Origin: an uncultured Alphaproteobacteria bacterium
GTDB taxonomy: Bacteria; Pseudomonadota; Alphaproteobacteria; HIMB59; GCA-002718135
Assembly: GCA_902621725.1 (NCBI GenBank)
Contig: CACNND010000003.1
Span: 47,782-111,781, forward strand
Length of the DNA stretch: 64,000 bases
Direction: 5' to 3'
The notes below the pieces were generated by a model. The model was not told the DNA's origin and did no database searches. It was given only the letters and a program-made list of their open reading frames with translations. Position numbers and translations under genes: made by a program. The number at the start of each line of letters is the position of its first letter. Positions within the stretch are counted from its first letter, which is position 1. Positions 28,777-46,064 of this stretch are shown one piece after another.

Positions 28777-29898
28777 TTATACTACTAGTTTAAGACCGTA
28801 ACCGGCTTTTTTTACTCTTGTTTTAAAATAATTTTTATTAAATTTATTTAAGGTTGGCTTTGTATTTATTTGATTTACAACTTTAATTCCAGCTTTCTTA
28901 ATAGAATTTATTTTATTTTTATTATTTGTAATAAGATTAACTTTATTTATTTTTAATAATTTGAGTATTCTAGCTGCAATATTAAAATCTCTTTCATCAT
29001 CTAAAAAACCAATATTATGATCGGCGTCTATTGTATCCATACCCCTTGCTTGAAGAGAATAGGCTCTCATTTTATTAGCTAATCCTATTCCTCTACCTTC
29101 TTGTTCTAAATATAATATAATTCCACCATTATTTCTAACCATGTAATTGATTGATTGATTTAACTGTTCACCGCAATCACATTTTAAAGAATGAAAAATA
29201 TCACCTGTAAAACAAGCTGAATGTATTCTTAAATTAACAGATTTTTTATTTATTTTTTTTGGATTAACAATTATCGCTACATGTTTATCAGATCCAATAT
29301 ATGATTTGAATATTTTAAAATTAGAATTTTCATTTTTTGGTAGTGGAACTTTTGCACTAGAAACTAATTTGATACTTTCACAAATTAATTCATTTTGCTT
29401 CAATAAATCTTTGTAATCAAATATTAAAATTCCATTTTTAAATCCAAATTCATTTATATTTTTGTAATTTTTTTTATTAATTTTTTTAAAAACTAGAGAT
29501 GGTATCATTTTAGCATTTTTGGAAAGATCAATACAAACATTATGAAAATTTTTAGCTTTGAATTTTTTAATATTGGTAAATTTAATTACTTTATTATTGC
29601 TAAGAGGATTGACAAATAAATTTATTATTTGATTTACATCTGTTTTGGGATTTATCTCAAAATAAATATTACTTTTAATATTCTTATTAAAAATTGATTG
29701 AGCTTTTTGTTTAGTAATAAGTAAGTATTTTTTATCAAATAAGTGCTTATTGAATTGATTAAAAATTTTACTTTGGGAATGCTCTATATTAAAGAACATC
29801 CAATATTCCTTGTTATTCTGAATTATTAAGGGTCTTCCGGTCCTGAGTTCGTTAATTGCCCTGTCTATTATAGTTCCTGTATTAGATTTGAAACTCAT
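28777..29898 (-). CDS. ribA: GTP cyclohydrolase II with an N-terminal degenerate RibB-like region
   Basis: RIHSACFTGD, CDCGEQL, QEGRGIGLANKMRAY, LITNN; N-terminal RAINELRTGRP; likely start at ATG 29898. Confidence 0.92.
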   Translation of the reverse strand: MSFKSNTGTIIDRAINELRTGRPLIIQNNKEYWMFFNIEHSQSKIFNQFNKHLFDKKYLLITKQKAQSIFNKNIKSNIYFEINPKTDVNQIINLFVNPLSNNKVIKFTNIKKFKAKNFHNVCIDLSKNAKMIPSLVFKKINKKNYKNINEFGFKNGILIFDYKDLLKQNELICESIKLVSSAKVPLPKNENSNFKIFKSYIGSDKHVAIIVNPKKINKKSVNLRIHSACFTGDIFHSLKCDCGEQLNQSINYMVRNNGGIILYLEQEGRGIGLANKMRAYSLQARGMDTIDADHNIGFLDDERDFNIAARILKLLKINKVNLITNNKNKINSIKKAGIKVVNQINTKPTLNKFNKNYFKTRVKKAGYGLKLVV

Positions 29899-29934
29899 TA
29901 AAACTTTATATAGATATAATTGTAATAAAAACAA

Positions 29935-30768
29935 ATGATTACATCAAAAAATATAGGAATTTTACTAGATTTTATAAAAAATTCTAAAAAGAATAATGAT
30001 TTATATTTATTGGTTAAAAAAAATAGTATTTCTTTATCATCAAAAAGAAAAAGTAATTTTTACATAAGAAATAATAATCTGGAATCTAAAATTAATATAA
30101 GTAAATATTATCAATCTATCTTAAATATCCTTCTCCCGATATTAAGAAAAAACAAAAAATTAGTTATAGCTCAGATAGGACAAAGTATTGATGGTAGAAT
30201 TGCATTAAATAATGGAAATTCTCACTACATAAATAATCCTAAGAGTATAATTTATCTACATTGTTTAAGAAGTATCAGTGATGCAATTATTGTAGGCTCA
30301 AATACCATTAAAAAAGACGACCCCCTATTAACAACAAGAAAAATAAAGGGCACAAATCCAAAAAGAATTATTATCGATGGCAGTCTTTCTCTAAATAACA
30401 AATATAAAATATTTAATGACGGTAATGAAAATATAATTTTTACAAAAAGTAATAAAAATATTAGATTGAATAATTCAACAATAATAAGATTAAAAGAAAA
30501 AAATTTTACTAAAAATTTAATTACGCAAATAAAAAAACTTAAATATAAAAATATTTTAGTAGAGGGAGGATCAAAAACTATTTCAGAATTAATAAATAAT
30601 AAATATATTGATATTCTTCAATTTATGATTGCCCCAATATTAATAGGTTCCGGAATTAATTCATTAAATTTAAAAGTAATTTCAAATCTCAATAAAGCTA
30701 TCAGACCAAAACATAATTTTAATGAATTAGAAAATGAAATTATTGTTAATTTATTTCTTAATAGCTAA
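29935..30768 (+). CDS. RibD C-terminal-type reductase (no deaminase domain)
   Basis: AQIGQSIDGRIA, HCLRSISDAIIVG, DDPLLTTR, LVEGG, APILIGSG. Confidence 0.88.
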   Translation: MITSKNIGILLDFIKNSKKNNDLYLLVKKNSISLSSKRKSNFYIRNNNLESKINISKYYQSILNILLPILRKNKKLVIAQIGQSIDGRIALNNGNSHYINNPKSIIYLHCLRSISDAIIVGSNTIKKDDPLLTTRKIKGTNPKRIIIDGSLSLNNKYKIFNDGNENIIFTKSNKNIRLNNSTIIRLKEKNFTKNLITQIKKLKYKNILVEGGSKTISELINNKYIDILQFMIAPILIGSGINSLNLKVISNLNKAIRPKHNFNELENEIIVNLFLNS

Positions 30769-31539
30769 AAAATCTGTATTATTTAAAATAAATCTAGAAT
30801 TTTTTTCTTTAATACATTTTAAACGAAATTTTAACCAATCATCAAAGTTAAGTTTATTTTTTTGAATAATTTCTCTACAAAAATTTAAGAAATAAATTTG
30901 AAATTCATAATTTTTACTAACATCCCATGTAGAGTCTAAAACATATGTGTTATGAGACCTTTTAAATACTTTATTTATTAATTCAGTACAATCTGGTCCA
31001 ACGGCCACTTCACCTATTCCTTTGTCAGATTTTTGATCTTTATTAAAAATATTAAGAATTTTTTTATCATCCTTGTGTTTTGGAATAAATTTAAAATTAC
31101 CGTTATAATTTAAGGCAAAGTAGACAATTTCTGTATCAACATTTAATTTATGAAAATTTTTAAACCATGTTCTTGGAAGAATATCTAAAAAAGCAGATCC
31201 TGTAACTAAATTATAATCATTAAAATTTATTTTTTCTAGATTATTAATTACATCAACAATTTTAAATTTAGTTTTTTTTATTTTAGATGATAATTTTATA
31301 TTTTTTTTAAAATAATTTGTTGATTGATGTGATATATCTACAAAAGACCAATGTTGATTATTTAATAATCTTGATTTAAGAAATCTATAATTAGATCCAG
31401 CACCTGAACCTAAGTCAACTATTCTAATATTTTTTTTATTTTTAAATAATTTATTAATTAAATATAGTATTCTTTTGTTTCTTGAATTCCTATCGACAGT
31501 TTCTCTAAGATTTAACCATTTATTTTGAAATTCATGCAT
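30751..31539 (-). CDS. SAM-dependent methyltransferase-like protein
   Basis: WLNLRETVD, IVDLGSGAGSN, VTGSAFLD, FALNYNG. Confidence 0.8.
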   Translation of the reverse strand: MHEFQNKWLNLRETVDRNSRNKRILYLINKLFKNKKNIRIVDLGSGAGSNYRFLKSRLLNNQHWSFVDISHQSTNYFKKNIKLSSKIKKTKFKIVDVINNLEKINFNDYNLVTGSAFLDILPRTWFKNFHKLNVDTEIVYFALNYNGNFKFIPKHKDDKKILNIFNKDQKSDKGIGEVAVGPDCTELINKVFKRSHNTYVLDSTWDVSKNYEFQIYFLNFCREIIQKNKLNFDDWLKFRLKCIKEKNSRFILNNTDFLAIKK

Positions 31540-31540
31540 A

Positions 31541-32587
31541 TTAAATTAAATTAACAAATTTCTTAGCTGACTCTAGAGGAGTAAGAAGATATCTTTTATT
31601 TTTATGAATATCAATATTTAGTTTTTTAAAATTTTTTTTATTTAATATATTTTTAATAATTATATTTCTAAGATCATTTACTTCAAATTTTTTGAAATAA
31701 ATAACACCCTTTTTTCCTAGTGTATTTAAGATAGTATTAGTGAAAAAGGTTATAATTGGCTTTTTAATTATTAATGCATTTGCTAAAGACATACCAAAAC
31801 CTTCATATTTACTTACCGAAATGTAACAATCTGTTTTAGAATATAATTTAGCTAATTTTGTATCTGAAATAGTACCATGGAATATTATTTTTCTGTTCAT
31901 TGAATTTTTAGAAATAAATTTTTTGAGTTTTTTGTAATAACTTATATCTCTTGTAGTATCACCAACAATTTCTAAAATAAAATTATCTAAAGGCTTTAAA
32001 ACTTTTAATAAAAAAAGATAATTTTTTCTATTTATTATACTTCCACATGTTAAAAAATGAATTTTACTATTATTTTTAAAATTATATTTTGAAAGTCTTT
32101 CTATACCAGGTTCAACTACAGAAATTTTATTATTTAGTACCTTAAATTCATTTATTAATAAATTTTTTGTATTTTTAGAAGTAACAATAAATTTATTTAT
32201 TTTTTTGAAATTTTCTTTTTCTAATCGTAAGAATTTTTTTGACCTATGACTTTTAAATTCAAGATATAAAGGATGATGTATTAGGGCGATAACATTATAA
32301 GTAAGTATTTTTTTAAAAATGGAATACATTCCTTCTAAAGCTAATCCATCTATGATAATTTTAGAGTCAGGATCAATTTTATCTAAAATTTTTAGAAAAT
32401 ATTTTATATCGTTATTTGTAGGAAAAGGATAATTTTCACTTAGAGCAATTGGTCTAATATTTATATTTCTTATCTTTGCATATTCTAGGATATTTTTTTC
32501 ATAAATATATCCTCCAGTTTTTGCATTAATATTTCCTGGATAAACAAAATAGATATCAGATTTATTTTTAGATAACCTCTTTTTCAT
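31541..32587 (-). CDS. Glycosyltransferase (GT4/group 1)
   Basis: TGGYIYE, IIDGL, LIHHPL, GSIINRKNY, SKYEGFGMSLANAL; likely start at ATG 32587, overlapping the upstream gene. Confidence 0.88.
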   Translation of the reverse strand: MKKRLSKNKSDIYFVYPGNINAKTGGYIYEKNILEYAKIRNINIRPIALSENYPFPTNNDIKYFLKILDKIDPDSKIIIDGLALEGMYSIFKKILTYNVIALIHHPLYLEFKSHRSKKFLRLEKENFKKINKFIVTSKNTKNLLINEFKVLNNKISVVEPGIERLSKYNFKNNSKIHFLTCGSIINRKNYLFLLKVLKPLDNFILEIVGDTTRDISYYKKLKKFISKNSMNRKIIFHGTISDTKLAKLYSKTDCYISVSKYEGFGMSLANALIIKKPIITFFTNTILNTLGKKGVIYFKKFEVNDLRNIIIKNILNKKNFKKLNIDIHKNKRYLLTPLESAKKFVNLI

Positions 32588-32966
32588 ATGATGCCCATGC
32601 AACATTTGATTCTTGCAAGGTTATTTTAATTTTTTTTAAAGATTTATAATCTTCAGAGAATTCATTTCTTAGTCTATTCAAGATCTTATTGCAGATATCC
32701 TCTGCTAAAAACTCTGTTGAGGTAATTTTTCCCTTAAATTCATCAATTTCATCTAAATTTTGATAATTATATATTTTAAGAATATCTTTTAAAGTCGTGG
32801 ACACTATTCCTAAATCCATAATTATATTGTATTTATTAAGTTTATCAGTGAAAAATTCTGCATCTACTAAATATGTAGCTCCATGCATATTTTGAGCTGG
32901 TCCAAATACTTCTCCAGGTAAAGAATGAGCTATTAGAATATTTTCTCTTACTTTTATAGAATACAT
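32568..32966 (-). CDS. 6-pyruvoyl-tetrahydropterin synthase/QueD-like T-fold protein
   Basis: IAHSLPGEVFGPAQNMHGATY, YQNLDE, STEFLAE, TLQES. Confidence 0.88.
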   Translation of the reverse strand: MYSIKVRENILIAHSLPGEVFGPAQNMHGATYLVDAEFFTDKLNKYNIIMDLGIVSTTLKDILKIYNYQNLDEIDEFKGKITSTEFLAEDICNKILNRLRNEFSEDYKSLKKIKITLQESNVAWASYEKEVI

Positions 32967-32968
32967 TA

Positions 32969-33928
32969 TTAATATTTAATTAGATGCATTATTGTATCCT
33001 TATTTTGAAGAATTTTATAGTAATCTTTTTCTAAATCAAAAAAATTACTTTCACTAGTAATTAATTTTTCTAATTTTGAATTTTTTAAAGATTTAATTGC
33101 TAATTTTAATCTCCCATCAAAATCATATTTATTTTTCATGTATTTTGGTATTTTAGATACCTGTGAGCTGATTATTTTTAATCTTTTAGAATGAAAATAC
33201 CCGCCTAGGGAAACTTCTCCTTTATTTTTACCATACCAACTAGCTTCTACTATTTTTCCTTCGATAGATAATTTTTCCATTAAAGAATTTAAAACTTTAT
33301 AATTAGCTGTAGTGTTTATTGCTACATCTATTTTCTCAATCTTTCTTATGTCAATAAAATTTAATCCTAAATAATTAGCAATTTTTCTTTTATTTTTATT
33401 ATTATCAAAAACATAAACATCTTTATATCCATTAATTTTAAAAAAAAATGCAGTTAATAATCCTACAGAGCCAAGTCCTACAATTAGAATTTTGTGATTA
33501 CTTTTAGATTGAGCGTCCCAAAAGATATTAATTGCTGTTTCCATATTTGCAGTAAGAATATATTTTCTCAAATTTCCGGTTGGAAGAAAAATTAAATTTT
33601 GAATAGAAATTTCATATAAATCTTGATGGGGATAAAGGCTAAATATTTTTTTATTTATATATTTACCTGGACCATCGATAATATTCCCAACATTTATATA
33701 ACCGTATTTTATAGGTAAATTAAAAGAACCCTCTTGAAATGGGGCTTTCATTAATTCAAATTGATCCTTACTTACGCTTTTAGATGAAACTAATTTTTCA
33801 GTTCCCTTACTAATACCTGAGTAAATAGTTTTAACTAAAACTGTTTTGTTATTTTTATTGTAAACAAGTTTTTTTTGATAAATTTTAGCTTGTTTTTTTT
33901 TATCAATCCATAAAGAATAAGATTTCAT
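32969..33928 (-). CDS. Zinc-binding alcohol dehydrogenase-like (MDR) protein
   Basis: YSGISKGTE, PIKYGY..VG, PHQ, ANMETAIN, GLGSVG, EASWYG, FHSKRL.IISSQV. Confidence 0.85.
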   Translation of the reverse strand: MKSYSLWIDKKKQAKIYQKKLVYNKNNKTVLVKTIYSGISKGTEKLVSSKSVSKDQFELMKAPFQEGSFNLPIKYGYINVGNIIDGPGKYINKKIFSLYPHQDLYEISIQNLIFLPTGNLRKYILTANMETAINIFWDAQSKSNHKILIVGLGSVGLLTAFFFKINGYKDVYVFDNNKNKRKIANYLGLNFIDIRKIEKIDVAINTTANYKVLNSLMEKLSIEGKIVEASWYGKNKGEVSLGGYFHSKRLKIISSQVSKIPKYMKNKYDFDGRLKLAIKSLKNSKLEKLITSESNFFDLEKDYYKILQNKDTIMHLIKY

Positions 33929-33956
33929 AATTTACTTATAAATGTATAATAAAAAA

Positions 33957-34709
33957 ATGCTAACAAACTTTTGGGAAGAATTAACAACAAATGAAATTAA
34001 AAAAATAAATAGAAAAACAGTTTTAATTTTCCCATTTTCATCAATAGAACAACATGGTACGCACCTTCCATTAAATACTGATAAAAAAATTCTTGAAGGA
34101 ATATTATTAGAATTCAATAAAAAATATAATTCAAATAAATATTTAATTATGCCTGAAATATATTTTGGTTCAGCTGCTGAACATACAGATTTTGATGGAA
34201 CTATAAGTATTGATTCATTGGAATTTATATCGCACTCTTTATCAATTTTAGAAAATATATGTAAATTGAAATTTAAAAATATATTACTTTTAAATAGTCA
34301 TGGTGGACAAATTAGTCATATAGATATTATTGCTAAAGAATTGAAATCAGAATTTAAGATAAACATAGTAAAAGGCACATATTTTTTATTTGATCAATTT
34401 AAAGGGATTATATCAAGTAAAGAAAAAGACTTTGGTTATCACGGTGGAGAATTTGAAACATCTATTATGTTATATTTATTTCCAAACTTAGTTAGACAAT
34501 CTAAAATTTCCAAACATAGATTATCTCCCGATTATTTATCATCTAAAACCATTTCTTATGAGAAAAATATTAAGAAAGCTTGGGTAACTAAAGAATTAAG
34601 TAAAAGTGGAATTATTGGAGATCCTAGAAAATCCAATGCAGAGATAGGAAAAAAAATAATTGATAGAGTAACACAAAAATTAAATAAAATAATAAATGAG
34701 ATGTTTTAG
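33957..34709 (+). CDS. Creatininase-family amidohydrolase
   Basis: SIEQHGTHLPLNTD, EHTDFDGT, NSHGG, HGGEFETS, GIIGDP. Confidence 0.9.
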   Translation: MLTNFWEELTTNEIKKINRKTVLIFPFSSIEQHGTHLPLNTDKKILEGILLEFNKKYNSNKYLIMPEIYFGSAAEHTDFDGTISIDSLEFISHSLSILENICKLKFKNILLLNSHGGQISHIDIIAKELKSEFKINIVKGTYFLFDQFKGIISSKEKDFGYHGGEFETSIMLYLFPNLVRQSKISKHRLSPDYLSSKTISYEKNIKKAWVTKELSKSGIIGDPRKSNAEIGKKIIDRVTQKLNKIINEMF

Positions 34710-34732
34710 ATTTTTATTTATTAAGAATTAAA

Positions 34733-35296
34733 TTAAAAAAATTTTTCGTATACCTCATTGTACTCACAATCATATACCTCACAGTTATCCAGCATATATT
34801 CAGTTATTTGACTTAAGAATGTACCATGACTGACTAATACAATTTTTTGTAAATTAAGTTTTTTGATAGATAGTAGAAAAGACCTTAATCTTATTTTAAT
34901 ATCATTGTGAGACTCTTGTATAATTTTTTTTTCATTAATAGGTTTGTTATTATTCCACCAAAAATCATTTAAATTATTAAAATCAAAATCATTAAATTCT
35001 TTTTTTAATTTTTTTGGTTGTCTTCCTACATCACATGAATGGTACAAATGTTCTCTTATTAATGGTTCAATTACAGGTTTATTTGATGGAAAAACAATAG
35101 AGAATGTTTCCAAAGTTCTTGTTAAGGGGGAGCAAAAATAATTATCAAATTTGATATTTTTAATTCTATTATTTAATTTTTTTGCTTGCTCAACTCCTCT
35201 TTGAGTAATTCTTGCATCATAATAATAAGTTGGATTATCTAAATCTGATGCTGCATTAGCTTCTGACTCTGCATGTCTAATAAGATATAATTTCAT
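34733..35296 (-). CDS. Histidine phosphatase (phosphoglycerate mutase family)
   Basis: LIRHAES, SPLTRT, CDVG, LVSHG. Confidence 0.88.
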   Translation of the reverse strand: MKLYLIRHAESEANAASDLDNPTYYYDARITQRGVEQAKKLNNRIKNIKFDNYFCSPLTRTLETFSIVFPSNKPVIEPLIREHLYHSCDVGRQPKKLKKEFNDFDFNNLNDFWWNNNKPINEKKIIQESHNDIKIRLRSFLLSIKKLNLQKIVLVSHGTFLSQITEYMLDNCEVYDCEYNEVYEKFF

Positions 35297-35504: not shown

Positions 35505-36401
35505 TTAATTCAAATTATTTTCTACTAATACTTTTTTAACAGTTTCACCCATTACAGAAGGGTTTTTGGAAATTGTAACTCCACACTCTTTAAGAAGTTC
35601 TACTTTTTCTATTGCGCTTTCACCATAAGCAGAAACAATTGCGCCAGCATGGCCCATAACACGACCTTTAGGTGCAGTTAGTCCTGCTATATACGCAATG
35701 ACCGGTTTACTCATATTTTCTCTAGCAAATTGTCCAGCTTCAACTTCTTGTGGACCACCTATTTCACCTATCATTAAAACTGCAATAGTTTCATCATCAT
35801 TTTCAAACTTTTCAATTATATCCCTAAAAGAACTTCCATTTATTGGATCGCCTCCTATACCTACACTTGTTGAAACACCAATTTCCAAATCTTTAAGTTG
35901 TTGTGCAGCTTCATATCCCAAAGTGCCAGATCTACTAACTATTCCTATTTTACCTTCTTTGTAAATGTGGCCAGGCATAATACCTAACATAGATTTACCA
36001 GGGCTAATTATTCCTGCACAATTTGGACCTACTAATCCCATTTTTTTATCTTTTGGATATCTTCTCATGTATCTTTTTATTTTAACCATATCATGAGAAG
36101 GAATACCGTCAGTAATAGCCACACAGGTCTTAATACCTGCATCAGCAGCTTCCATTGCTGAGTCAGCTGCAAAGGCTGGTGGAACAAATAAAATTGATGT
36201 TGATGCTCCAGTTTGATCTACAGCTTCTTTAACAGTATTAAAAACAGGAAGATTTAAATGAGTCATGCCACCCTTACCAGGCGTTACCCCGCCAACAACG
36301 TTAGAACCATACTTAATCATTTCTTCAGCATGAAAACTTCCAATTTTTCCAGTGAAACCTTGGACTAAAATCTTTGTATTTTTGTGAATGATTATAGACA
36401 T
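35505..36401 (-). CDS. mtkB: Malate--CoA ligase (malate thiokinase) alpha subunit / SucD-like
   Basis: VGGVTPGKGG, GPNCAG, SRSGTLGYE, MGHAGA; follows mtkA and mcl. Confidence 0.8.
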   Translation of the reverse strand: MSIIIHKNTKILVQGFTGKIGSFHAEEMIKYGSNVVGGVTPGKGGMTHLNLPVFNTVKEAVDQTGASTSILFVPPAFAADSAMEAADAGIKTCVAITDGIPSHDMVKIKRYMRRYPKDKKMGLVGPNCAGIISPGKSMLGIMPGHIYKEGKIGIVSRSGTLGYEAAQQLKDLEIGVSTSVGIGGDPINGSSFRDIIEKFENDDETIAVLMIGEIGGPQEVEAGQFARENMSKPVIAYIAGLTAPKGRVMGHAGAIVSAYGESAIEKVELLKECGVTISKNPSVMGETVKKVLVENNLN

Positions 36402-36403
36402 GA

Positions 36404-37564
36404 TTATCCAAGAGCCTTCACTGCTTTATTTGCTGCATCTTCTAAAGTTGATGCTTCAATGTAATTTATATTGCTTTTTTTAAGTATTTCATTTCCCTTT
36501 TCGACGTTAGTTCCAGCTAAACGTATAACTAAAGGATGTTTAATTTCAATTTTTGATAAAGCTTGAACAATTCCTTCTGCAACCCAATCACATCTGTTAA
36601 TCCCTGCAAAGATATTAACTAATATCACCTTAACTTTTGTGTCCATAGAGATTAATTTAAAAGCTTTAACTATTTTTTCAGGTGTTGCACCTCCGCCAAC
36701 ATCTAAAAAATTTGCAGGTTCACCACCAGCAAGTTTTATCATATCCATTGAAGCCATTGCTAAGCCTGCACCATTAATAATATTACCAATATTCCCATCT
36801 AGACTTACATAATTCATTCCTCTGTCAGAAGCATAAACTTCATTTGAATTTTCTTGTGTTTTATCTCTAAGTTCTGAAATTTCATCTCTTCTAAACATTG
36901 CATTATTATCAAAACTCATTTTACAATCTAATGCTAGTATTTCATCTTGTTGTGATACAACTAATGGGTTAACTTCAACCATTGTCGCATCAAGCTCACT
37001 AAAAGCTTTATAACAACCAATAATTGTATTTGCTGCTCTTGAGATCAATTTGGATTCAATTCCTAAACCAAAAGCTATTTCTCTTGCTTGAAATTGTTGA
37101 ATTCCAACTGCTACTTCTATTTTAGATCGTATAATTGTTTCAGGTTTTTCTTTTGAAATTTCTTCGACACTCATTCCACCTTCTGTTGAGGCTACAACCA
37201 TTATACTTTCTGAAGATCTATCAAACACTAAACCTAAATATAATTCATGTTTGATATCAGTTGCTTCTTCAATATAAATTCTATTTATTATCTTACCCTC
37301 TGGACCAGTTTGGTTTGTAATTAATTTTTTACCTAACAATTTATCAGTTGCATCAGCAACTTCTAACGGAGAATTACATATTATAATTCCTCCCGCTTTA
37401 CCTCTAGCACCAGAGTGAACTTGTGCTTTTACAACCCATTTTGAACCACCAATTTCTCTCGCTTTATTTTCTGCATTTTCTGGACTATAAACAATACCGC
37501 CAGTGGGAATTTTAACTCCAAAATCGGACAATATTTTTTTTGCTTGATATTCGTGTATGTCCAT
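36404..37564 (-). CDS. mtkA: Malate--CoA ligase beta subunit / SucC-like
   Basis: MDIHEYQAK, VHSGARGKAGG; NIFAGINRCDWVAEG is MtkA-type rather than SucC NIFGGI.RCD; adjacent to mcl. Confidence 0.82.
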   Translation of the reverse strand: MDIHEYQAKKILSDFGVKIPTGGIVYSPENAENKAREIGGSKWVVKAQVHSGARGKAGGIIICNSPLEVADATDKLLGKKLITNQTGPEGKIINRIYIEEATDIKHELYLGLVFDRSSESIMVVASTEGGMSVEEISKEKPETIIRSKIEVAVGIQQFQAREIAFGLGIESKLISRAANTIIGCYKAFSELDATMVEVNPLVVSQQDEILALDCKMSFDNNAMFRRDEISELRDKTQENSNEVYASDRGMNYVSLDGNIGNIINGAGLAMASMDMIKLAGGEPANFLDVGGGATPEKIVKAFKLISMDTKVKVILVNIFAGINRCDWVAEGIVQALSKIEIKHPLVIRLAGTNVEKGNEILKKSNINYIEASTLEDAANKAVKALG

Positions 37565-38502
37565 TACTTACTTTCAATTAACTTATTAATATTTACAACA
37601 TTTTCAGCCATTCTAGCAGATGCAGCATCTATCATTCTTCCATCAAGCTGAGCAGCGCCCTTTCCTTCAGCAGCTGCTTTTTCTAATTCTAATAATATTC
37701 TTTTTGCTTTATCTATTTCTTCTTTGGGTGGAGAAAAAACTTCATTAGCTAAATCTATTTGCGATGGATGTATTGCCCATTTACCCTCAAAACCAATTGC
37801 TGCCGCTCTTTTTGCTGCATCAAGATATCCTTGTTTGTCATTAAAATCTCCAAAAGGTCCGTCTATTGCTCTTAAGCCATATGATCTACAGGTCATTACT
37901 AAAGTTGATAAGCCATGATGCCATTGATCACCAGGGTAATCAGGATTTAAACCTCCTATGACAACAGTTCTTGCTCGCATACTTGCAGCATAATCTGCAA
38001 CTCCAAAGTGTAATGCTTCTAGCCTAGAACTTGATGTTGCAATTGATTGGATGTTAGACATTCCTAGCGCTGTTTCAATTAAACATTCTAAACCTATTCT
38101 ATTTTCAAATTTTTTATTTTGTTCAATTTGATTGAGCATACAATCAACCATATATACATCAGATGATGAGCCTACTTTTGGAATTAATAATGTATCAATC
38201 TTATCACCGACCTCTTCTATAATTTCAATCACATCACGATACATATAGTGTGTATCCAAACCGTTAATTCTTATAGAGATTGTTTTACCTTCTTCTCTCC
38301 AATTGTATTCTTTTATTGCATTTATAACATTTTTTCTTGCATCAATTTTATCATTTGGAGATACTGCATCTTCTAAATCTAAAAAAATATAATCGGCATT
38401 TGATTTTAATGCTTTTTCAAACATCCTTGGATTAGAGCCTGGAACCGCCAATTCACTTCTGTGTAATCTAGATTTTGCAGGTTTATAAAATAAATGGCTC
38501 AT
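37564..38502 (-). CDS. mcl: Malyl-CoA lyase (CitE/HpcH family)
   Basis: RLHRSELAVPGSN, DLEDAV, RINGLDTHYMYRD, LHFGVADYAAS, IDGPFGDF, GKWAIHPSQ. Confidence 0.87.
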   Translation of the reverse strand: MSHLFYKPAKSRLHRSELAVPGSNPRMFEKALKSNADYIFLDLEDAVSPNDKIDARKNVINAIKEYNWREEGKTISIRINGLDTHYMYRDVIEIIEEVGDKIDTLLIPKVGSSSDVYMVDCMLNQIEQNKKFENRIGLECLIETALGMSNIQSIATSSSRLEALHFGVADYAASMRARTVVIGGLNPDYPGDQWHHGLSTLVMTCRSYGLRAIDGPFGDFNDKQGYLDAAKRAAAIGFEGKWAIHPSQIDLANEVFSPPKEEIDKAKRILLELEKAAAEGKGAAQLDGRMIDAASARMAENVVNINKLIESK

Positions 38503-39708: not shown

Positions 39709-40308
39709 ATGTATATTTATGATTTTATCCAAGGATTAATAATTGGAGGAACATTAATTATAGCCATAGGACCTCAAAATTTATTTGTAATACAGCAAGG
39801 GCTTAAAAAATCTTATGTTTTTACAGTTACTTTATTTTGCAGTCTATCAGACAGTTTACTAATTATAATTGGAATATATTTATCTAATTATATTGTTCAA
39901 ATTAATCCAAGTATTATAGGAATAATAAAAGTATTAGGTGGAATTTGGCTTATATCTTATGGATTAAATAAAATTATAAAATTAAATAAATTTAAAAATA
40001 TAAATAAAGAATTAAATATAATTAACGAATTCGGTAAAATATTAATTACCTTGCTTCTTATTACATACGCAAATCCTCATGTTTATATAGATACAATTAT
40101 TTTGCTTGGATCATTATCAACAAATTTTAATGATCAATTTTCATTTGGTATTGGAGCAATTTCAGCTAGTTTTTTGTTTTTCTTTTCTTTGGGATATATG
40201 TCAAAGTTCATATCAAAATATATTTATTCAAATAAAACTTGGTTTTGGATTGATCTAACCATTGGCATGCTAATGATTAGTTATGGGATATATTTTATAA
40301 TTTTTTAA
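39709..40308 (+). CDS. LysE/ArgO family amino acid exporter
   Basis: LIIAIGPQNLFV.QQG, NPHVYIDT. Confidence 0.9.
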   Translation: MYIYDFIQGLIIGGTLIIAIGPQNLFVIQQGLKKSYVFTVTLFCSLSDSLLIIIGIYLSNYIVQINPSIIGIIKVLGGIWLISYGLNKIIKLNKFKNINKELNIINEFGKILITLLLITYANPHVYIDTIILLGSLSTNFNDQFSFGIGAISASFLFFFSLGYMSKFISKYIYSNKTWFWIDLTIGMLMISYGIYFIIF

Positions 40309-43306
40309 AGAAAGTTTCTAAGTTTTTACATACCTGATCAACATTTAATTTTGTAAATACAAGAGGTGGTTTTATTTTAATAACATTGTCATAAGGGCCA
40401 TCAGTGCTCAACAAAATACCTTGATTCCTCATATAATTAATAAGCAATTTAGCTAATTTTTTGTTTGGTTTAGACACATTACTATTTTGAATAATATCTA
40501 TTCCTAAAAAAAGCCCCCTACCCCTAACTTCACTAATATATTTTTTATATTTAAGTTTGATTTTTTTTAATTCTTTTAAAAAATAATTACCAACTAACAA
40601 GGCATTTTTTTGTAATTTATTATTATCAATAGTCTCTAATACTGCTTTACCGATAGCGCAGGAAACGGGATTACCACCGAATGAATTAAAATATTCCATC
40701 CCATTATTAAAAGTTGAAGCTATTTTTTCTGTAGTTATAACAGCAGCTATAGGGTGACCATTACCCATAGGTTTGCCCAAGGTTACTATATCAGGAACGA
40801 CATCATGCTCTTCAAATGACCAAAAATTTCTTCCAACGCGTCCAAAACCAGTTTGTACTTCATCAACAATACATAATGCATTGTTTCTTCTAATTTCTGA
40901 AAATATTTCTTTTAAATAATTTTTTGGAAGAATTACTTGACCACCGCAACCAAGTATACTTTCTGTAAAAAAACATGCAATTTTTGTTTCTTTAATTTTA
41001 TTTCTAATTACTGTTTTAGCTTCATCTATATATTTTTGAATCCAATTTGAATTTTGATATTTCCACTTACCTCTTAAAGGATCAGGCATATCTAATACAT
41101 GAACATAATCTTTTTTACCTAAACCACCCTTACTATTAAATTTGTATGGACTTAGATCAATTAAAGCATTGGTATGCCCGTGATAAGCATTGTCCATCAC
41201 AAAGACATCTTTCGCACTAGTATAAGTTTGAGCTATTCTATAAGCTAAATCATTAGCTTCAGATCCTGTACATACAAAAAATATCTTATTTAATTTCTTT
41301 GGAAACTTACTTAAAAGTAATTCACTATAATCGTTAATTGTATCGTATAGATATCTCGTATTAGTATTAAGTTTTAAATTTTGTTTAATCATAGCTTCAT
41401 GGACATAGGAATTTGAATGCCCAACATGGGAAATATTATTTACACAATCTAAGTATCTCCTGCCATATCTATCAAAAAAATACTGATCTTTAGCTTCAAG
41501 CATATAAAGAGGTTTCTTGTAAGAAATTGATAAATTATCAGAAATATTTTTTCTTCTTTTTTTTAAAGTATCTTTAAAATCATTATTATTAGAATAAAAA
41601 GATTTTGGAATTCGTAGAATTAAATTTGGATCAGGTGAAATTTTATTCCAAATATTGAATAAAAATTCTTCACCTACTCCTGGAAAATTGTTATCATATC
41701 CTAATAAATCTAAAATAATTTGAAAATGTAAATGTGGTAACCATTTTCCATTTTCATTAGAATTACCAATTTTACCAATCCATTCGCCTTTCTTAATTTT
41801 TTTTCCAATTTTTAGTTTTTGAAACATTATTTTGGATAAATGACCGTATAGAGTATAAAATTTATATTTTTTAAAACTATGTTCTAAAACTAGAGTGGGA
41901 CCATAGTCATATTTAAAATTGTTATTTTTTAAAATTATAATTTTACCATCTATTGGCGCAAATAAATCTGTTCCTTGGTCAATAAAGATATCTACGCCTA
42001 AATGAATATTACGTCTTTCATTCGTTTTTAATTCAGAAATAAAGTTAGGTCCCTTATAAACTTTTCTTTTTTCATTGTATAAACCTATTCCTATACGAGA
42101 ATTATCTTCTTTAAATATTTTATTAACCCTTTTTTTAAGCAAACTATTATCTGGGTTACCTTTTAATAAAGGTGAATCAGAACTTAATTTTAAGATAGAT
42201 TTATTTTTATCAAGTATATTAAATTTAAAAATATTATCAAAGTTGAATTTATTTATATAATTTATAATTTCATTATGATGGTGAATAATCTCAAAGCCGC
42301 ATATTTCACGAACAATATATATTAAAAAATTGATAGGAATTTTGTCTAATTTTTCTAATAAAGACCATGCATCTTTCTCACTAATACTTAAATATTGATT
42401 TGATGGATATTTAATTCTTTGTTTTTTTGCCATTACAACAGTAATCATAAGTCTTGACTTACATAATGATATTAATGAATTAATTTCATCTTCATTAATA
42501 GAAAATTGTTTATTGTACTCTGTGATTATATTTTTAAGTGTAAGATAAATATTATCATTATTCATTAATGCATATGAAAGGCATATAGCTAAATCATTTA
42601 TTGTTGGAGAATAAATAGAATCTCCATAATCTAGTAAACCACAAACATTGTTTTTTTTAATAACAATATTATAATTATTTGGATCTGAATGAGTTATTGA
42701 ATATCTTAATTTATTTAAATTATTTTTTACAAATTTTTCATATTCTGAAAAACATTTTAATAAAATTAATTTTTTTGAACCAGTAAAAATATTAATATCT
42801 TTTTTAATCCAACTAATATTTGATGGATCCCAAATAAAATTTCTATGAGCATCTAAATCGTTAAATGCTTGCAACTTAGTTGATACTTTTCCAAGCAACT
42901 TACCTAAAGAATTTTCAATTATATCGTTACTTTTTGTATCTCCATACATTCGCCCATCAATATAAGATAAGATCCTAACAAAGCATTCTCTATTTTTTTT
43001 ATCTAAATATTTTAGAATCTTTGAATGGTGTATTTTTGGTATAAAAGATTTAAGACTAAGATCAGTTCGTAAATAATTTATTAATCTATCTTGGTATTTT
43101 AATATATTTATTTTTTCTGATGGGTTTGAAATTTTTAATACATATTTTTTTTTATTATTTATGAATATAATAAAATTTATATCCCTTTCACTATCAAGTT
43201 GTTTAATTGTGAGTAATTTATTTCTTAAGAAAGAAAAATTAATCTTTAACCATTTAATTAAATGTTTATTATCAATAATAGGTGGATCAACATCAAAAAC
43301 TGACAT
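40295..43306 (-). CDS. Fusion of an APH/hydroxylysine-kinase-like phosphotransferase, an M23 peptidase-like domain and a class III PLP aminotransferase/phospho-lyase
   Basis: SERDINF, HSDPNNYN, DYGD (kinase); HLGVD, LYGHL, PHLHFQ (M23); YLDCVNN..HVGH, GSEANDLA, DEVQTGFGR, LGKPMGNGHP (AGXT2L-like). Start uncertain (43306, 43324 or 43345). Confidence 0.88.
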   Translation of the reverse strand: MSVFDVDPPIIDNKHLIKWLKINFSFLRNKLLTIKQLDSERDINFIIFINNKKKYVLKISNPSEKINILKYQDRLINYLRTDLSLKSFIPKIHHSKILKYLDKKNRECFVRILSYIDGRMYGDTKSNDIIENSLGKLLGKVSTKLQAFNDLDAHRNFIWDPSNISWIKKDINIFTGSKKLILLKCFSEYEKFVKNNLNKLRYSITHSDPNNYNIVIKKNNVCGLLDYGDSIYSPTINDLAICLSYALMNNDNIYLTLKNIITEYNKQFSINEDEINSLISLCKSRLMITVVMAKKQRIKYPSNQYLSISEKDAWSLLEKLDKIPINFLIYIVREICGFEIIHHHNEIINYINKFNFDNIFKFNILDKNKSILKLSSDSPLLKGNPDNSLLKKRVNKIFKEDNSRIGIGLYNEKRKVYKGPNFISELKTNERRNIHLGVDIFIDQGTDLFAPIDGKIIILKNNNFKYDYGPTLVLEHSFKKYKFYTLYGHLSKIMFQKLKIGKKIKKGEWIGKIGNSNENGKWLPHLHFQIILDLLGYDNNFPGVGEEFLFNIWNKISPDPNLILRIPKSFYSNNNDFKDTLKKRRKNISDNLSISYKKPLYMLEAKDQYFFDRYGRRYLDCVNNISHVGHSNSYVHEAMIKQNLKLNTNTRYLYDTINDYSELLLSKFPKKLNKIFFVCTGSEANDLAYRIAQTYTSAKDVFVMDNAYHGHTNALIDLSPYKFNSKGGLGKKDYVHVLDMPDPLRGKWKYQNSNWIQKYIDEAKTVIRNKIKETKIACFFTESILGCGGQVILPKNYLKEIFSEIRRNNALCIVDEVQTGFGRVGRNFWSFEEHDVVPDIVTLGKPMGNGHPIAAVITTEKIASTFNNGMEYFNSFGGNPVSCAIGKAVLETIDNNKLQKNALLVGNYFLKELKKIKLKYKKYISEVRGRGLFLGIDIIQNSNVSKPNKKLAKLLINYMRNQGILLSTDGPYDNVIKIKPPLVFTKLNVDQVCKNLETFFKKL

Positions 43307-43325
43307 AAAAGGTGTATAATTCATA

Positions 43326-44213
43326 ATGCTGAAATCTAAAAACATTTTTGTTTGTATTGGGGCAATTCACCACGATTATTTATTAAATCTTAAAAAAAAT
43401 ATTATTAATTTTAGATCTAATCAAATTATACAAAAAAGCAGAATTGGTGGAGTGGCGTACAATATTGCAGAATTACTTTCGAATTTTGTTGATGTAAATT
43501 TTTATAGTTTAGCTATCAATGAAGAGATTAGAAAAAAAATCTCAAAAAAAATATATGTTCATCAAGTGAATAAAAATTATACAGATAGATACTATTTAGC
43601 TTTATCAGATAAAAATAATAAATTTTTATTAGGATTAGCTAACACAGATGAATATGAAAATAATAAATCTTTAAAAATACCGAACATCAAGAATAAAAAT
43701 ATAATATTTGATCTAAATTTTTCTAAAACCTATTTGGAAAAATCAATAAACAAACTATCAAAAACAAATAAAATTATAGTGTGCGCAACATCAGTGCATA
43801 AAGTTATTAAAATTAAAAGGATTATAAATAAAATTGATTTTATATTCTTAAATAAAGCAGAGTTACTTAAACTTACAAATTCTTCAAATATAATATTAGG
43901 TGTAAAAAAAATATTAAAACAAAATAAAAAAATAAAAATAATTACTACTAATTCAAAAAATAATGTAATCTTTGGAAGTAATGAATTTATAAAAAAAATA
44001 AAACCCCCATCAATCAAAGTAGTAAACGAAAATGGAGCTGGAGACGCACTAGCAGCTATGATGCTGTATTTGTTCAGTGTAAATGAGAAAATGAATTATA
44101 TTTTGAAAACTTCTGTAGCATGCGGATCTTATTATGCTAGTGGTAAAAGTCTAAAAACTAAGAGAGATTTTTTAAAAATTAAAAATCTTTCTAAGAAAGT
44201 GAGTGTACAATAG
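43326..44213 (+). CDS. PfkB-family kinase, probable pseudouridine kinase (divergent)
   Basis: GGVAYNIA, FLNKAE, NENGAGDA; directly upstream of psuG. Confidence 0.75.
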   Translation: MLKSKNIFVCIGAIHHDYLLNLKKNIINFRSNQIIQKSRIGGVAYNIAELLSNFVDVNFYSLAINEEIRKKISKKIYVHQVNKNYTDRYYLALSDKNNKFLLGLANTDEYENNKSLKIPNIKNKNIIFDLNFSKTYLEKSINKLSKTNKIIVCATSVHKVIKIKRIINKIDFIFLNKAELLKLTNSSNIILGVKKILKQNKKIKIITTNSKNNVIFGSNEFIKKIKPPSIKVVNENGAGDALAAMMLYLFSVNEKMNYILKTSVACGSYYASGKSLKTKRDFLKIKNLSKKVSVQ

Positions 44214-44214
44214 T

Positions 44215-45123
44215 ATGCATGAAATATTTGATTTAAGTAAAAAAATTCAAGAAGCAATAAATAGAAAAAAACCAATAGTAGCTTTAGAAAGTACGTTGAT
44301 TAGTCATGGATTACCCTATCCAGAAAATATTAAAGTCGCAAATGAGTCTATAAAGGCTGTTGAAGATAACGGTGCAATTGCTGCAACAATAGGAATAATT
44401 AGAGGTAGGGTTAAAATAGGATTATCGGAAGAAGACATTGAAATATTAGCAAAAGAAAAAAATGTACAAAAAGTTTCAAACAACAATATAAATTTATCAA
44501 TATTTAATAAAGAAAATGCTGCTACAACAGTAGCAAGTACAATTGCTATAGCTTCTAAATTTCAAATAAGATTTTTTGCAACAGGAGGAATTGGTGGTGT
44601 GCATCTAAATGCTGAAAATACCAATGATGTATCTGCAGATCTATATGCACTATCTGAGAATTCAAATTTTGTAATCTGTAGTGGTGCTAAATCTATTTTA
44701 GATATAAGTAAAACAAATGAACTTCTTGAAACTTTAGGAATTACAAGAATTGGTTATCAAACAAATTATATGCCTGGTTTTTGGTATGAAGAAACAGAAA
44801 ATAAAGTCGATAATAAATTTGATGAAATTCATGAAATTTCTTCTTTTTTAAAACTCAATGAAAATATAGGAAATAAAAAATCAATTCTCATATTTAATAA
44901 AGTTCCATCAGAAAAAGCACTTAATAAAAATGACGTAAAAAAATGGATAAATAATGCAACAATAAAAGCTGATAGAAATAATATTATTGGAAAAGAATTA
45001 ACTCCGTTTCTCATAAAAGAAATTAACGAACAATCAAAAAATGAAACTCTAAATGCTAATGTATCTTTAATAATTAATAATGCGAATTTAGCTGGAAAGA
45101 TTGCAAAGAGTTTTTATAGTTAA
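44215..45123 (+). CDS. psuG: Pseudouridine-5'-phosphate glycosidase
   Basis: VALESTLISHGLPYPEN, ATTVAST, FATGGIGGVH, DVSADL, GAKSILD, GKELTPF. Confidence 0.95.
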   Translation: MHEIFDLSKKIQEAINRKKPIVALESTLISHGLPYPENIKVANESIKAVEDNGAIAATIGIIRGRVKIGLSEEDIEILAKEKNVQKVSNNNINLSIFNKENAATTVASTIAIASKFQIRFFATGGIGGVHLNAENTNDVSADLYALSENSNFVICSGAKSILDISKTNELLETLGITRIGYQTNYMPGFWYEETENKVDNKFDEIHEISSFLKLNENIGNKKSILIFNKVPSEKALNKNDVKKWINNATIKADRNNIIGKELTPFLIKEINEQSKNETLNANVSLIINNANLAGKIAKSFYS

Positions 45124-46064
45124 GGTAATAACGATAATTTAGCTTTAAGTAATTGAAAGAATTTTTCATCATTAGCTTCATTCATCACAAAACAATTTAC
45201 TGGTCTTTTAGTAACACCTAGCCAATCAACAACAGTCTCCCCTCTTGTTAATTCAGAATTTTCTTCAACTGTGACATTAACTTTTTTTCCACTAAAAATA
45301 GATGGATCTAACAAATATGCAATAACACATGGGTCATGCAAAGGAGTTTCCTCAGTTTCGTATAATTCTTTATGAAATATTGTATAAAATTCCATTAGTT
45401 CTCCAAAAAACTTAGAACTTTTATTATTATTTTCATTCATTGATTTGATAATTTTTGAATTTACATTTACCTGATGAGTAACATCTAAACCCATCATTGT
45501 TAAAGGAATGCCTGATTCTAAAACAATATTAGCCGCATGTGGATCTACATAAATATTAAATTCAGCTGATGGTGTAGTATTTCCTAAGCACATAGCAGCC
45601 CCACCCATAAAAACTATTTCTTTTATATTTTCTTTAATAGACGGATCTTTTTTTAAACTTAAGGCAATATTTGTAAGAGGTCCTGTTGGACATAAATAAA
45701 TTTGCTCTGTTGAAGATTTACAAGTTTCTACTATGAAATCAACTGCATGTTTTTCTTGAGGTTTATAATTTGTATCTATTATTATAGGATCACCTTTTTT
45801 ATCTAATCCGGTTTTTCCGTGAACATATTCAGCTGTAAATAATTCATAATGAATAGGTTTATTTGCACCAGAGTAAACTTTAATGTCCGTTCTTTCAATT
45901 AACGTACAAACTTTAAGAGCGTTATTTACTGTATTATTTAAACCACTATTTCCACCCACACAGGTGATACCCAGTATGTCAATCTCCTTAGAAGAAGAAG
46001 CTAACATTATTGCTACAGCATCATCATGACCTGGGTCACAATCTAAAATTATTTTTTTAGTCAT
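45120..46064 (-). CDS. Nucleoside hydrolase (IU-NH/Rih family)
   Basis: DCDPGHDDA, VHGKTGL, TGPLTNIA, AEFNIYVDP, LHDP; start trimmed to ATG 46064. Confidence 0.93.
   Translation of the reverse strand: MTKKIILDCDPGHDDAVAIMLASSSKEIDILGITCVGGNSGLNNTVNNALKVCTLIERTDIKVYSGANKPIHYELFTAEYVHGKTGLDKKGDPIIIDTNYKPQEKHAVDFIVETCKSSTEQIYLCPTGPLTNIALSLKKDPSIKENIKEIVFMGGAAMCLGNTTPSAEFNIYVDPHAANIVLESGIPLTMMGLDVTHQVNVNSKIIKSMNENNNKSSKFFGELMEFYTIFHKELYETEETPLHDPCVIAYLLDPSIFSGKKVNVTVEENSELTRGETVVDWLGVTKRPVNCFVMNEANDEKFFQLLKAKLSLLP

Follow-up and report, generated by a model that had tools for sequence, protein, structure and literature searches.

Gene clusters in which a GTP cyclohydrolase II (GCH II) homologue lies close to a T-fold protein of the 6-pyruvoyltetrahydropterin synthase (PTPS) fold were reportedly noticed in Streptomyces coelicolor years ago, in the region SCO6650 to SCO6655, with SCO6655 as the GCH II homologue. 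Spoonamore and Bandarian are said to have found that SCO6655 makes a formylated product, a formamidopyrimidine (FAPy). Such clusters can also encode a creatininase-family protein, and this family includes the proven formamidases ArfB and BrbF, which act on 2-amino-5-formylamino-6-ribosylaminopyrimidinone 5'-phosphate (AFRPP) (PMC9478397). We analysed a cassette of this kind, seven genes followed by a histidine phosphatase gene, in a 64,000-nucleotide stretch of DNA (hereafter the window) from an uncultured marine alphaproteobacterium of the HIMB59 lineage, whose genome assembly comprises 1.38 Mb in 65 contigs and is 82% complete. We found that the cassette stands apart from the riboflavin and folate genes of its own genome and joins two modules. 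The entry module consists of GCH II, a creatininase-family hydrolase and a RibD_C-type reductase; the core consists of a medium-chain dehydrogenase/reductase (MDR), the T-fold protein, a GT4 glycosyltransferase and a methyltransferase (MT), and it recurs across bacterial phyla. In our judgement it is an even call whether the cassette is a self-contained biosynthetic pathway for a soluble methylated glycoside of a pterin-like or ribitylaminopyrimidine compound. Our literature search found no publication that assigns a product to the cluster, and a 2026 review of pterins makes no mention of cyclohydrolase II, PTPS or a glycosyltransferase. The view that the end product has not been described, put forward in an original prediction made from the letters of the window, is therefore still current.

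The cassette and its entry enzymes

The original prediction described seven contiguous genes and a following phosphatase. All eight are open reading frames (ORFs) lying where it had placed them, and their families were confirmed by Pfam and NCBIfam, by orthologues and by profile searches (Table 1). The locus spans 28777-35296, of which the seven-gene cassette takes up 28777-34709. Its ORFs are nearly spacer-free and lie on strands -,+,-,-,-,-,+,-, so they do not form a single operon. The MT, GT4, T-fold and MDR genes make up one co-directional unit that is coupled as had been claimed, with gaps of 1 and 2 nt and an overlap of 20-38 nt between the GT4 and T-fold genes; the RibD_C and MT genes are convergent and overlap by 18 nt. 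The cassette is the most AT-rich part of the window (20.5-22.8% G+C vs about 23-34% elsewhere) and is surrounded by housekeeping genes, among them gyrA, uvrA, secDF and mfd. No mobile-element borders were seen in its flanks, which show only low-complexity AT-rich repeats. An Rfam gathering scan of the whole window found no riboswitch and matched only 2 tRNAs, and a scan for promoters and terminators was uninformative (53 promoter-like sites vs 66.2 expected; 0 terminators). Contigs of 14 metatranscriptome runs contain 23-32% of the sampled words of 28777-35296, a figure that is not evidence of transcription. Among the loci compared, this eight-gene version, carried by a marine genome of 1.4-1.6 Mb, is the most compact form.

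Table 1. Genes of the cassette and the adjoining phosphatase: window coordinates, supporting matches, number of the best 80 loci with the gene near the T-fold gene, and dN/dS between the window and a close relative
Predicted product	Coordinates	Strand	Length (aa)	Evidence	Near T-fold gene	dN/dS
Long-form GCH II paralogue	ORF 28777-29934, likely 28777..29898	-	373	PF00925	52/80	0.024
Stand-alone RibD_C-type pyrimidine reductase	29935..30768	+	277	PF01872	23/80	0.114
Class I S-adenosylmethionine (SAM)-dependent methyltransferase (MT)	30751..31539	-	262	weak Pfam matches, orthologues	68/80	0.195
GT4-type (GT-B fold) glycosyltransferase	31541..32605	-	348-354	PF00534, PF13439	42/80 (undercount, 19-28% identity; GT4 fills the gap wherever checked)	0.195
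SCO6650-type T-fold protein (PTPS fold)	32568..32966	-	132	PF01242, PDB 3d7j		0.000
MDR dehydrogenase, probably zinc-less, polyol dehydrogenase/BchC-like	32969..33928	-	319	profile searches, orthologues	76/80, adjacent	0.117
Creatininase-family metal amidohydrolase, candidate AFRPP (FAPy) formamidase	33942..34709	+	255	PF02633	53/80	0.094
Histidine phosphatase, probable accessory member, candidate 5'-phosphatase	34733..35296	-	187	PF00300	7/80, window's lineage only	0.092

The cassette GCH II matches PF00925 (GTP_cyclohydro2) with 166.6 bits over residues 193-356 of 385 (cut-off 23.3) and NF001591 with 218.7 bits, over the cut-off of 148; it does not reach PRK08815, the long-form RibA equivalog (266.8 bits vs 464). 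Its start is most likely the ATG at 29898, because orthologues begin there. The zinc-binding Cys triad (HSACF...KCDCG) is intact, the Tyr in MRAYSLQ quoted by the original prediction is present, and these Cys and the Tyr are invariant in 7/7 long-form orthologues. This Tyr, at the position of Tyr105 in E. coli RibA, lets a GCH II deformylate by itself. The C-terminal GCH II half is intact, and the N-terminal half is degenerate and RibB-like, with the acidic DHBPS motif lost. In hhalign the protein is colinear with the genome's own RibBA (probability 97.8%, 320 columns), a profile match dominated by the C-terminal half, and direct BLASTP of the N-terminal half against this RibBA gave no significant match. 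A RibB-like origin of the N-terminal half is probable rather than proven.

The other two entry enzymes have clear family matches and fall below curated equivalog scores. RibD_C has PF01872 as its sole Pfam match (108.2 bits vs a cut-off of 24.1, residues 77-240 of 277), and the Pfam scan found no N-terminal cytidine-deaminase-type domain, the mark of a bifunctional RibD. It scores 116.9 bits against TIGR00227 (cut-off 150.15) and 92.4 bits, at 2.2e-26, against the archaeal rib_reduct model (cut-off 186), and its PDB matches are RibD and archaeal reductases (2hxv, 2.5e-17; 2azn, 4.8e-14). The creatininase-family protein matches PF02633 with 186.2 bits and lies under the cut-off of every NCBIfam equivalog (MftE, creatininase, IolN and ArfB; for ArfB, NF033501, 28.4 bits vs 180). 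Its E/H/D, HGG and H..E..ETS motifs align with those of 3lub and its metal site is intact. Homology thus points to a live GCH II, a creatininase-family hydrolase with an intact metal site and a pyrimidine-type reductase that lacks a deaminase.

Does this module serve riboflavin synthesis? The genome holds three GCH II homologues: the cassette copy, a stand-alone ribA on contig C5 (196 aa, zinc Cys and Tyr intact) and a RibBA encoded in a ribE-ribBA-ribH-nusB operon on another contig. A canonical nrdR-ribD with the deaminase motif lies at the end of contig C25. The second ribA and ribD whose presence the original prediction had left to be checked are both there, and its observation that ribE and ribH are not nearby holds. 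Since canonical ribA, ribBA, ribH, ribE and ribD all lie elsewhere in the genome, the cassette is, on gene content, a pathway separate from the housekeeping riboflavin route. The additional role in riboflavin synthesis that had been suggested for the cassette GCH II is unnecessary with an intact stand-alone ribA on contig C5. In contrast, the proposal of a distinct GTP-derived cluster apart from riboflavin and queuosine synthesis is borne out, with the housekeeping genes elsewhere and no genuine QueC found. As a side observation, the genome carries two complementary half-dead RibBA-type proteins, the cassette GCH II and the housekeeping RibBA (contig C12, locus L003:1489-2643); the latter has a good DHBPS half and a GCH II half without the three zinc Cys.

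One could still read the cassette as a redundant or alternative entry branch to riboflavin, as for BrbF of S. meliloti, beside unrelated sugar-modifying genes. All three entry enzymes have riboflavin-pathway counterparts, the loss of the zinc Cys from the GCH II half of the genome's RibBA would fit such a branch, and one other carrier genome (G471) has the cluster copy as its sole GCH II match. However, at least two GCH II homologues occur in 4/5 other carriers tested, as they do here beside an intact ribA and a canonical ribD, and a RibD_C without a deaminase would yield a product that keeps its 2-amino group. Moreover, the link of MDR, T-fold protein, GT4 and MT, which this reading would make incidental, is conserved across phyla and in fusion proteins. 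We consider a riboflavin branch improbable.

The T-fold signature protein and the core enzymes

The T-fold protein is the genome's sole match to PF01242 (PTPS; 74.5 bits). It aligns end to end with S. coelicolor SCO6650 (PDB 3d7j), at an E value of 7.9e-34 as a single sequence and of 1.9e-54 as a profile. This match, together with the same gene set in Streptomyces loci, confirms the tie to the SCO6650-6655 region that the original prediction had drawn. The family signature AHS...FGPAQ.LHGAT...NLD...TTE...ES is present, and so are the quoted motifs AHSL and FGPAQNMHGAT, the latter without a Cys. Nine positions are invariant in a 40-sequence alignment of the family (S15, F21, G22, A24, H28, T31, D51, L71 and D72), and H14, E85 and E119 are near-invariant.

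Can such a protein act as a PTPS or a QueD? The motifs of these enzymes are defined as CxxxHGH or CxxxxxHGH (PMC5041015). When the family profile is aligned with PTPS of rat, human and C. elegans, the position of the catalytic Cys is the invariant Ala24, HGA stands in place of HGH so that one His of the three-His zinc site is lost, and the Asp-His pair of rat PTPS ('LDH') aligns with 'lnY'. Both Glu residues that anchor the pterin in PTPS are retained. Because the Glu pair is kept and the Cys, the Asp-His pair and the zinc His are lost, the protein probably still binds a 2-amino-4-oxopyrimidine or a pterin and, by this residue mapping, cannot do PTPS or QueD chemistry. The SCO6650-type family is possibly the COG0720 subfamily PTPS-V of de Crecy-Lagard and co-workers; of PTPS-V a 2016 review says that its function 'is still unclear' (PMC5041015).

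Public annotation names the protein otherwise. PGAP labels its orthologues '6-carboxytetrahydropterin synthase' (QueD), and its ESM Atlas matches are 'putative 6-carboxy-tetrahydropterin synthase' clusters only. These names, and a PF01242 match over the cut-off, are what an ordinary QueD or PTPS in an incidental neighbourhood would give. Against it stand the residue losses and the curated scores, 37.3 bits vs a cut-off of 89.25 for TIGR03367 (QueD) and 28.1 vs 125.5 for TIGR00039. The genome, moreover, offers no FolE as a source of substrate for QueD, and a search for QueC gave three partial matches (best 23.6 bits) inside ORFs of 373-530 aa and no genuine QueC, QueE not having been searched for. 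We rejected the QueD assignment on residues, curated score and pathway context, and an ordinary QueD or PTPS is hardly credible.

Among the other core enzymes, GT4 is recognised by Pfam (PF00534, Glycos_transf_1, 68.4 bits; PF13439, 28.6 bits); its PDB sequence matches are two weak ones, both to other glycosyltransferases. In other phyla its gene lies directly downstream of the T-fold gene. The best Pfam match of the MT, at 22.7 bits, is under the Pfam cut-offs; orthologues at the same position reach 3.9e-13, and PGAP annotates them as class I SAM-dependent methyltransferases. The MDR scores 25.1 bits vs a cut-off of 31.8 for ADH_zinc_N and matches BchC (TIGR01202) at 1.6e-13, far under its cut-off. 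Searched against the PDB, a profile of 26 MDR sequences matches polyol dehydrogenases, with 4oh1 the best at 1.2e-10, and the match is confined to the Rossmann part. All 26 sequences have an invariant SxGTE, which places a Ser at the catalytic-zinc Cys position of GxCxxD, as well as GxGxxG; the protein belongs, on these motifs, in the MDR superfamily but is probably without zinc. The better-scoring orthologues and the profile searches confirm the MT and MDR as members of their families. The histidine phosphatase (PF00300, His_Phos_1, 80.9 bits) adjoins the cassette in 7/8 loci of the window's lineage. At locus L023 it is on the opposite side of the cassette, still adjacent, and it is absent from the context of L022.

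Distribution across phyla and within the order

At E <=1e-3 a library clustered at 50% contains 1059 representatives of the T-fold family, of which 415 remain at E <=1e-10. A scan of one genome per species gave at least 599 candidate stretches, of which at least 584 were confirmed. We analysed the best 80 loci, counting genes by tblastn within 9 kb of the T-fold gene (Table 1); in 56/80 the sequence extends for 8 kb or more on each side. The loci belong to single-cell genomes of the window's lineage, Streptomyces, other Actinomycetota, Alpha-, Beta- and Gammaproteobacteria, Gemmatimonadota and Bacteroidota. The co-occurrence that the original prediction made its key check is thus found, and the order MDR, T-fold, GT4, MT on one strand is kept in Actinomycetota, Alpha-, Beta- and Gammaproteobacteria, Gemmatimonadota and Bacteroidota. 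To judge from the neighbourhoods, GCH II, creatininase or RibD_C has been recruited repeatedly to this core. At the Tyr position, the 52 cluster copies of GCH II have Met in 40 and His in 4 (all short-form, Actinomycetota) and Tyr in 8 (long-form). Since two GCH II architectures joined the same core, functional coupling is well supported.

Fusion proteins also link the cassette functions, as read from their domain matches. P0259 (1032 aa) joins a T-fold domain, a weak HAD-like stretch (E 2.8e-4), an MT and a cluster-type MDR; its MDR part is matched by hhalign at 99.9% (E 7e-36), and its MT part is weakly colinear with the window's MT. The search of the representatives found three T-fold stretches each in P0124, P0144, P0146 and P0123, and Pfam confirms three in P0124, P0144 and P0146. 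The long proteins come from a metagenome/transcriptome library; some of those with three tandem T-fold domains carry a methyltransferase-like tail, and their composition looks eukaryote-like. We also noted that a 417-kb plasmid, pTs417 of Candidatus Thiodictyon syntrophicum, whose host is a purple sulfur bacterium, carries the cluster (locus L108, 11528-12085) with a cytochrome b gene inserted between MT and RibD.

The core has membrane partners as well. A CDP-alcohol phosphatidyltransferase gene is divergent from the MDR gene in 59/80 of the best loci, an LPG_synthase_TM (MprF-like) membrane protein follows the MT in 50/80, and 15/80 have a sulfatase/LtaS-like membrane protein some 550 aa long; PGAP annotation independently agrees on these partners. 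They shift the likely fate of the product, outside the window's lineage, to a phospho-linked or lipid conjugate. None of the three genes was found in 8 loci of the window's lineage, nor by tblastn at E <1e-3 (queries from L048, L052 and L061) in the window's own 82%-complete genome. Because of this absence from loci and genome, we regard the window's version, on gene content, as a 'soluble' variant that adds RibD_C and the histidine phosphatase. Even so, the product might be a membrane- or envelope-linked conjugate here too, a glycosylated, methylated GTP-derived polyol or pterin joined by a phosphodiester to a lipid or an envelope polymer. In that case the final steps in the window's lineage would fall to housekeeping transferases, or the lineage would stop at a soluble precursor. 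The frequency of the membrane partners elsewhere speaks for this and their absence here against it; in addition, CDP-alcohol transferases can, from general knowledge of the family, also make soluble phosphodiesters. We judge a membrane-linked product unlikely.

How is the cassette distributed closer to the window? We searched 52 genomes of the order with a completeness of 85% or more and found matches to the T-fold protein in 33 and to the MDR in 34. Two apparent absences are assembly breaks inside the cassette: in G055 (L112, G055:C12) creatininase and MDR run to the contig end, and in G048 (L114, G048:C26) a creatininase fragment lies at the contig start. The cassette is therefore present in about 35/52 genomes. 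It occurs in two of eight genera (g1, at least 18/21 genomes; g2, 16/24), with 0/6 in the six others. Because it is found in about 35/52 genomes and was not found in a closed, 99%-complete genome of the order (G025), the cassette is accessory. Counts of single genes underestimate it, as contigs of other assemblies end inside it. In a sample of the class, 44/396 high-quality genomes and 34/294 genera have the T-fold family. Among the matches listed, every carrier from outside the window's order has a genome of 2.8-6.3 Mb, and carriers below 2 Mb come from the window's own order only.

Within the order, the seven genes keep the same order in three unrelated flanking contexts, which puts the arrangement far beyond chance. 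Between the window and a close relative (L028; dS 0.17-0.39) all eight genes are under purifying selection (Table 1). The selective value that the original prediction had read from retention in a minimal genome is upheld by this selection, whereas the retention itself is not general. Another relative, L024 (G015:C11, 7400-10200), is a mosaic: GCH II through T-fold are 86-94% identical in protein sequence, and MDR, creatininase and phosphatase only 57-75%, with the drop between the T-fold gene and the MDR. The L024 MDR appears in two overlapping high-scoring segment pairs and may contain a frameshift.

Folate synthesis offers another possible use for a GTP-derived pterin. We found FolE (PF01227), the GTP cyclohydrolase I (GCH I) of folate synthesis, in 0/41 relatives, and no FolE2 (PF02649) in the window's genome; HPPK is nevertheless present in 40/52 genomes of the order. 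The cassette might supply the folate pterin as a bypass of FolE. In Chlamydia, a GCH II product is converted by an Amadori-type step to dihydroneopterin phosphate (PMC4161248), and in genus g2 (n=24) cassette and HPPK are both present in 15 genomes and both absent in 6, with the cassette alone in 1 and HPPK alone in 2. Yet there is another candidate. On contig C5 of the same genome, outside the window (C5:23941-28682), a divergent TrpF-like ORF (216 aa; PF00697, 23.4 bits; best PDB match the phosphoribosylanthranilate isomerase 4aaj, 1.6e-6) comes directly after the gene run pabB-pabA-pabC-folP-folB-folK, the canonical trpF being on contig C4. In 36/40 HPPK genomes a strong match to the TrpF-like paralogue lies beside folK. 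In two of the other four (G053 and G070) it is on another contig or several kb off, and the remaining two (G050 and G071) have fragments only, at contig ends or in a frame that a stop codon interrupts. Within genus g2 the TrpF-like gene and HPPK occur in the same 17/24 genomes.

Further evidence tells against a folate role. At least 8 HPPK genomes have no T-fold or MDR match (G042, G045, G060, G062, G063, G064, G033 and G034; G051, where the contig ends, is left out of this count). FolE is present in 5/5 cassette carriers tested from other phyla, and GT4 and MT have no role in folate synthesis. On the TrpF-like gene beside folK, the HPPK genomes without the cassette and FolE in other carriers, we rejected the FolE bypass as the main explanation. 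The cassette is probably not such a bypass, which we hold to be very improbable. The TrpF-like gene, by analogy, looks like a Chlamydia-style bypass of FolE by RibA and TrpF. Extensive auxotrophy is predicted in HIMB59 and Pelagibacterales (PMC13408713); a TrpF-like bypass, if true, would undercut folate-auxotrophy predictions for such marine lineages.

Other genes of the window deserve a brief description. Directly beside it, at 35505-38502 (-), are a malate--CoA ligase beta subunit (NF010647, 624.2 bits vs a cut-off of 604), an alpha subunit and a CitE/HpcH-type lyase that is under every curated cut-off (best RipC, 189 bits vs 375). By these matches the three look like an mtkAB-mcl-type malyl-CoA set rather than sucCD of the tricarboxylic acid cycle. 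At 40295-43345 (-) a 1016-aa ORF shows an unusual fusion of Peptidase_M23 (447-544) with a C-terminal class-III aminotransferase (613-1011). A nucleoside-salvage set occupies 43326-46136 and 60042-63742, first with a PfkB kinase, an Indigoidine_A-like protein (pseudouridine-5'-phosphate glycosidase type) and an inosine-uridine nucleoside hydrolase, and further on with a PnrA-like binding protein, two permeases and a phosphoribosyltransferase.

A candidate pathway and its relation to known systems

What might the cassette make? In the pathway we favour, the long-form GCH II would open GTP to a ribosylaminopyrimidine 5'-phosphate, and the creatininase-family hydrolase would strip any remaining N5-formyl group, turning AFRPP into 2,5-diamino-6-ribosylaminopyrimidinone 5'-phosphate (DARoPP). 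The deaminase-less RibD_C would then reduce ribosyl to ribityl with the 2-amino group kept, in the step order of archaea, and we infer 2,5-diamino-6-ribitylamino-pyrimidinone 5'-phosphate as the product of this module. In the core, the zinc-less polyol-type MDR would oxidise a side-chain hydroxyl. At C2' this oxidation would give the same keto-amine as the Amadori rearrangement of GCH I, which could cyclise to a neopterin-type dihydropterin. The T-fold protein would grip the 2-amino-4-oxopyrimidine ring by its two Glu and catalyse a step unlike that of PTPS; this could be a ring closure or a rearrangement, giving a neopterin-like pterin. Removal of the 5'-phosphate would fall to the histidine phosphatase, GT4 would add a sugar and the MT a methyl group, and the end product would be a soluble methylated glycoside, pterin-like or a ribitylaminopyrimidine. 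The roles in the entry module are assigned by homology and the core steps inferred from family membership. The interpretation offered by the original prediction is partly supported, in that the gene set and its separateness stand, its individual chemical steps remain inference, and the order in which it placed them, like the pigment or UV-absorbing role that it considered, is conjectural.

Several observations weigh against this pathway. With the Tyr retained in the window's GCH II, a dedicated formamidase is not obviously needed and the creatininase may act elsewhere; a creatininase accompanies a Tyr-form GCH II in the window's lineage, at L048 and at L065. RibD_C is present in only 23/80 of the best loci, so a ribityl intermediate may not be universal, and the frequent CDP-alcohol phosphatidyltransferase and MprF-like partners (59/80 and 50/80) suggest that the ancestral product may be membrane-linked. 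The window's own MT and MDR proteins are under Pfam cut-offs, and the pathway roles of all the cassette proteins are putative. Finally, no pterin-dependent client is visible, because aromatic amino-acid hydroxylase (Biopterin_H) was found in 0/52 genomes of the order and pterin-4a-carbinolamine dehydratase is present in 50/52 irrespective of the cassette. On the same two counts we rejected a cofactor of the tetrahydrobiopterin type.

A wider picture, which is possible but which we advance only tentatively, would take in the loci of all phyla. In it the MDR/T-fold/GT4/MT core and a GTP-opening module would make an undescribed class of GTP-derived methylated glycosides, with either a neopterin-like pterin or a ribityl-diaminopyrimidinone as the aglycone. 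In most carriers a CDP-alcohol phosphatidyltransferase and an MprF-like flippase would turn this into a pterin- or pyrimidine-headed phospholipid or an envelope decoration. A soluble version would persist in streamlined marine alphaproteobacteria, and long multidomain proteins would fuse the same activities.

The gene set is present in at least 584 species-level genomes without a known product, and its signature T-fold protein is publicly called a queuosine enzyme. Identifying the product would correct this widespread misannotation and extend GTP, pterin and flavin metabolism by a new branch; a membrane-linked product, if true, could reveal a new type of lipid head group. The compact eight-gene version is a convenient cassette for heterologous expression.

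How does the cassette compare with described systems? The toxoflavin (tox) operon makes a GTP-derived heterocycle with a dedicated GCH II paralogue, a RibD-type enzyme and a SAM methyltransferase. Compared by description, the window lacks the deaminase domain and adds a T-fold protein, MDR, GT4 and creatininase. The archaeal ArfA/ArfB/ArfC route of early riboflavin and F420 synthesis and the bacterial BrbF share with the pathway proposed for the cassette a GTP ring opener, a creatininase-family AFRPP formamidase and, by the account in PMC9478397, a reductase that acts before deamination. In contrast, the window's ring opener is GCH II and not GCH III, its proteins fall under the ArfB (28.4 vs 180) and rib_reduct (92.4 vs 186) cut-offs, and its downstream genes are not riboflavin genes. 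The Chlamydia bypass shows that a GCH II product is convertible to a pterin via RibA and a promiscuous TrpF (PMC4161248), but the analogous candidate in the window's genome would be the TrpF-like gene beside folK and not the cassette.

The pteridine glycoside pathway of cyanobacteria and Chlorobium (GCH I, PTPS, reductase and pteridine glycosyltransferase) resembles the cassette in bringing a PTPS-fold enzyme, a side-chain oxidoreductase and a GT-B glycosyltransferase to a GTP-derived heterocycle. The Chlorobium pteridine glycosyltransferase is filed with GT-1/AviGT-4-like proteins in PMC5683033, whereas the window's GT4 has its two weak PDB matches to other glycosyltransferases. Moreover, the window's lineage has no GCH I by the FolE and FolE2 searches (PF01227, 0/41 relatives; PF02649, none in its own genome), its T-fold protein is without the PTPS catalytic residues, and entry would be by GCH II, formamidase and RibD_C.

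The closest relatives of the cassette are the Streptomyces loci. Their T-fold proteins are homologous to that of the window (E 7.9e-34 with SCO6650), and MDR, T-fold, GT4, MT, creatininase and GCH II stand in the same relative order. However, the Streptomyces GCH II is short-form with Met at the Tyr position (37/37 loci with a GCH II match), whereas the window's is long-form, with a dead RibB-like half and the Tyr. The Streptomyces loci add the CDP-alcohol phosphatidyltransferase (39/39) and the MprF-like transmembrane protein (37/39), which the window lacks, and they are usually without RibD_C (4/39) and the histidine phosphatase (0/39), both of which the window has. Altogether, this kind of cluster is already known, and the window's version of it is new: a long-form Tyr GCH II, an added RibD_C and phosphatase, and a core without the membrane genes of its relatives.

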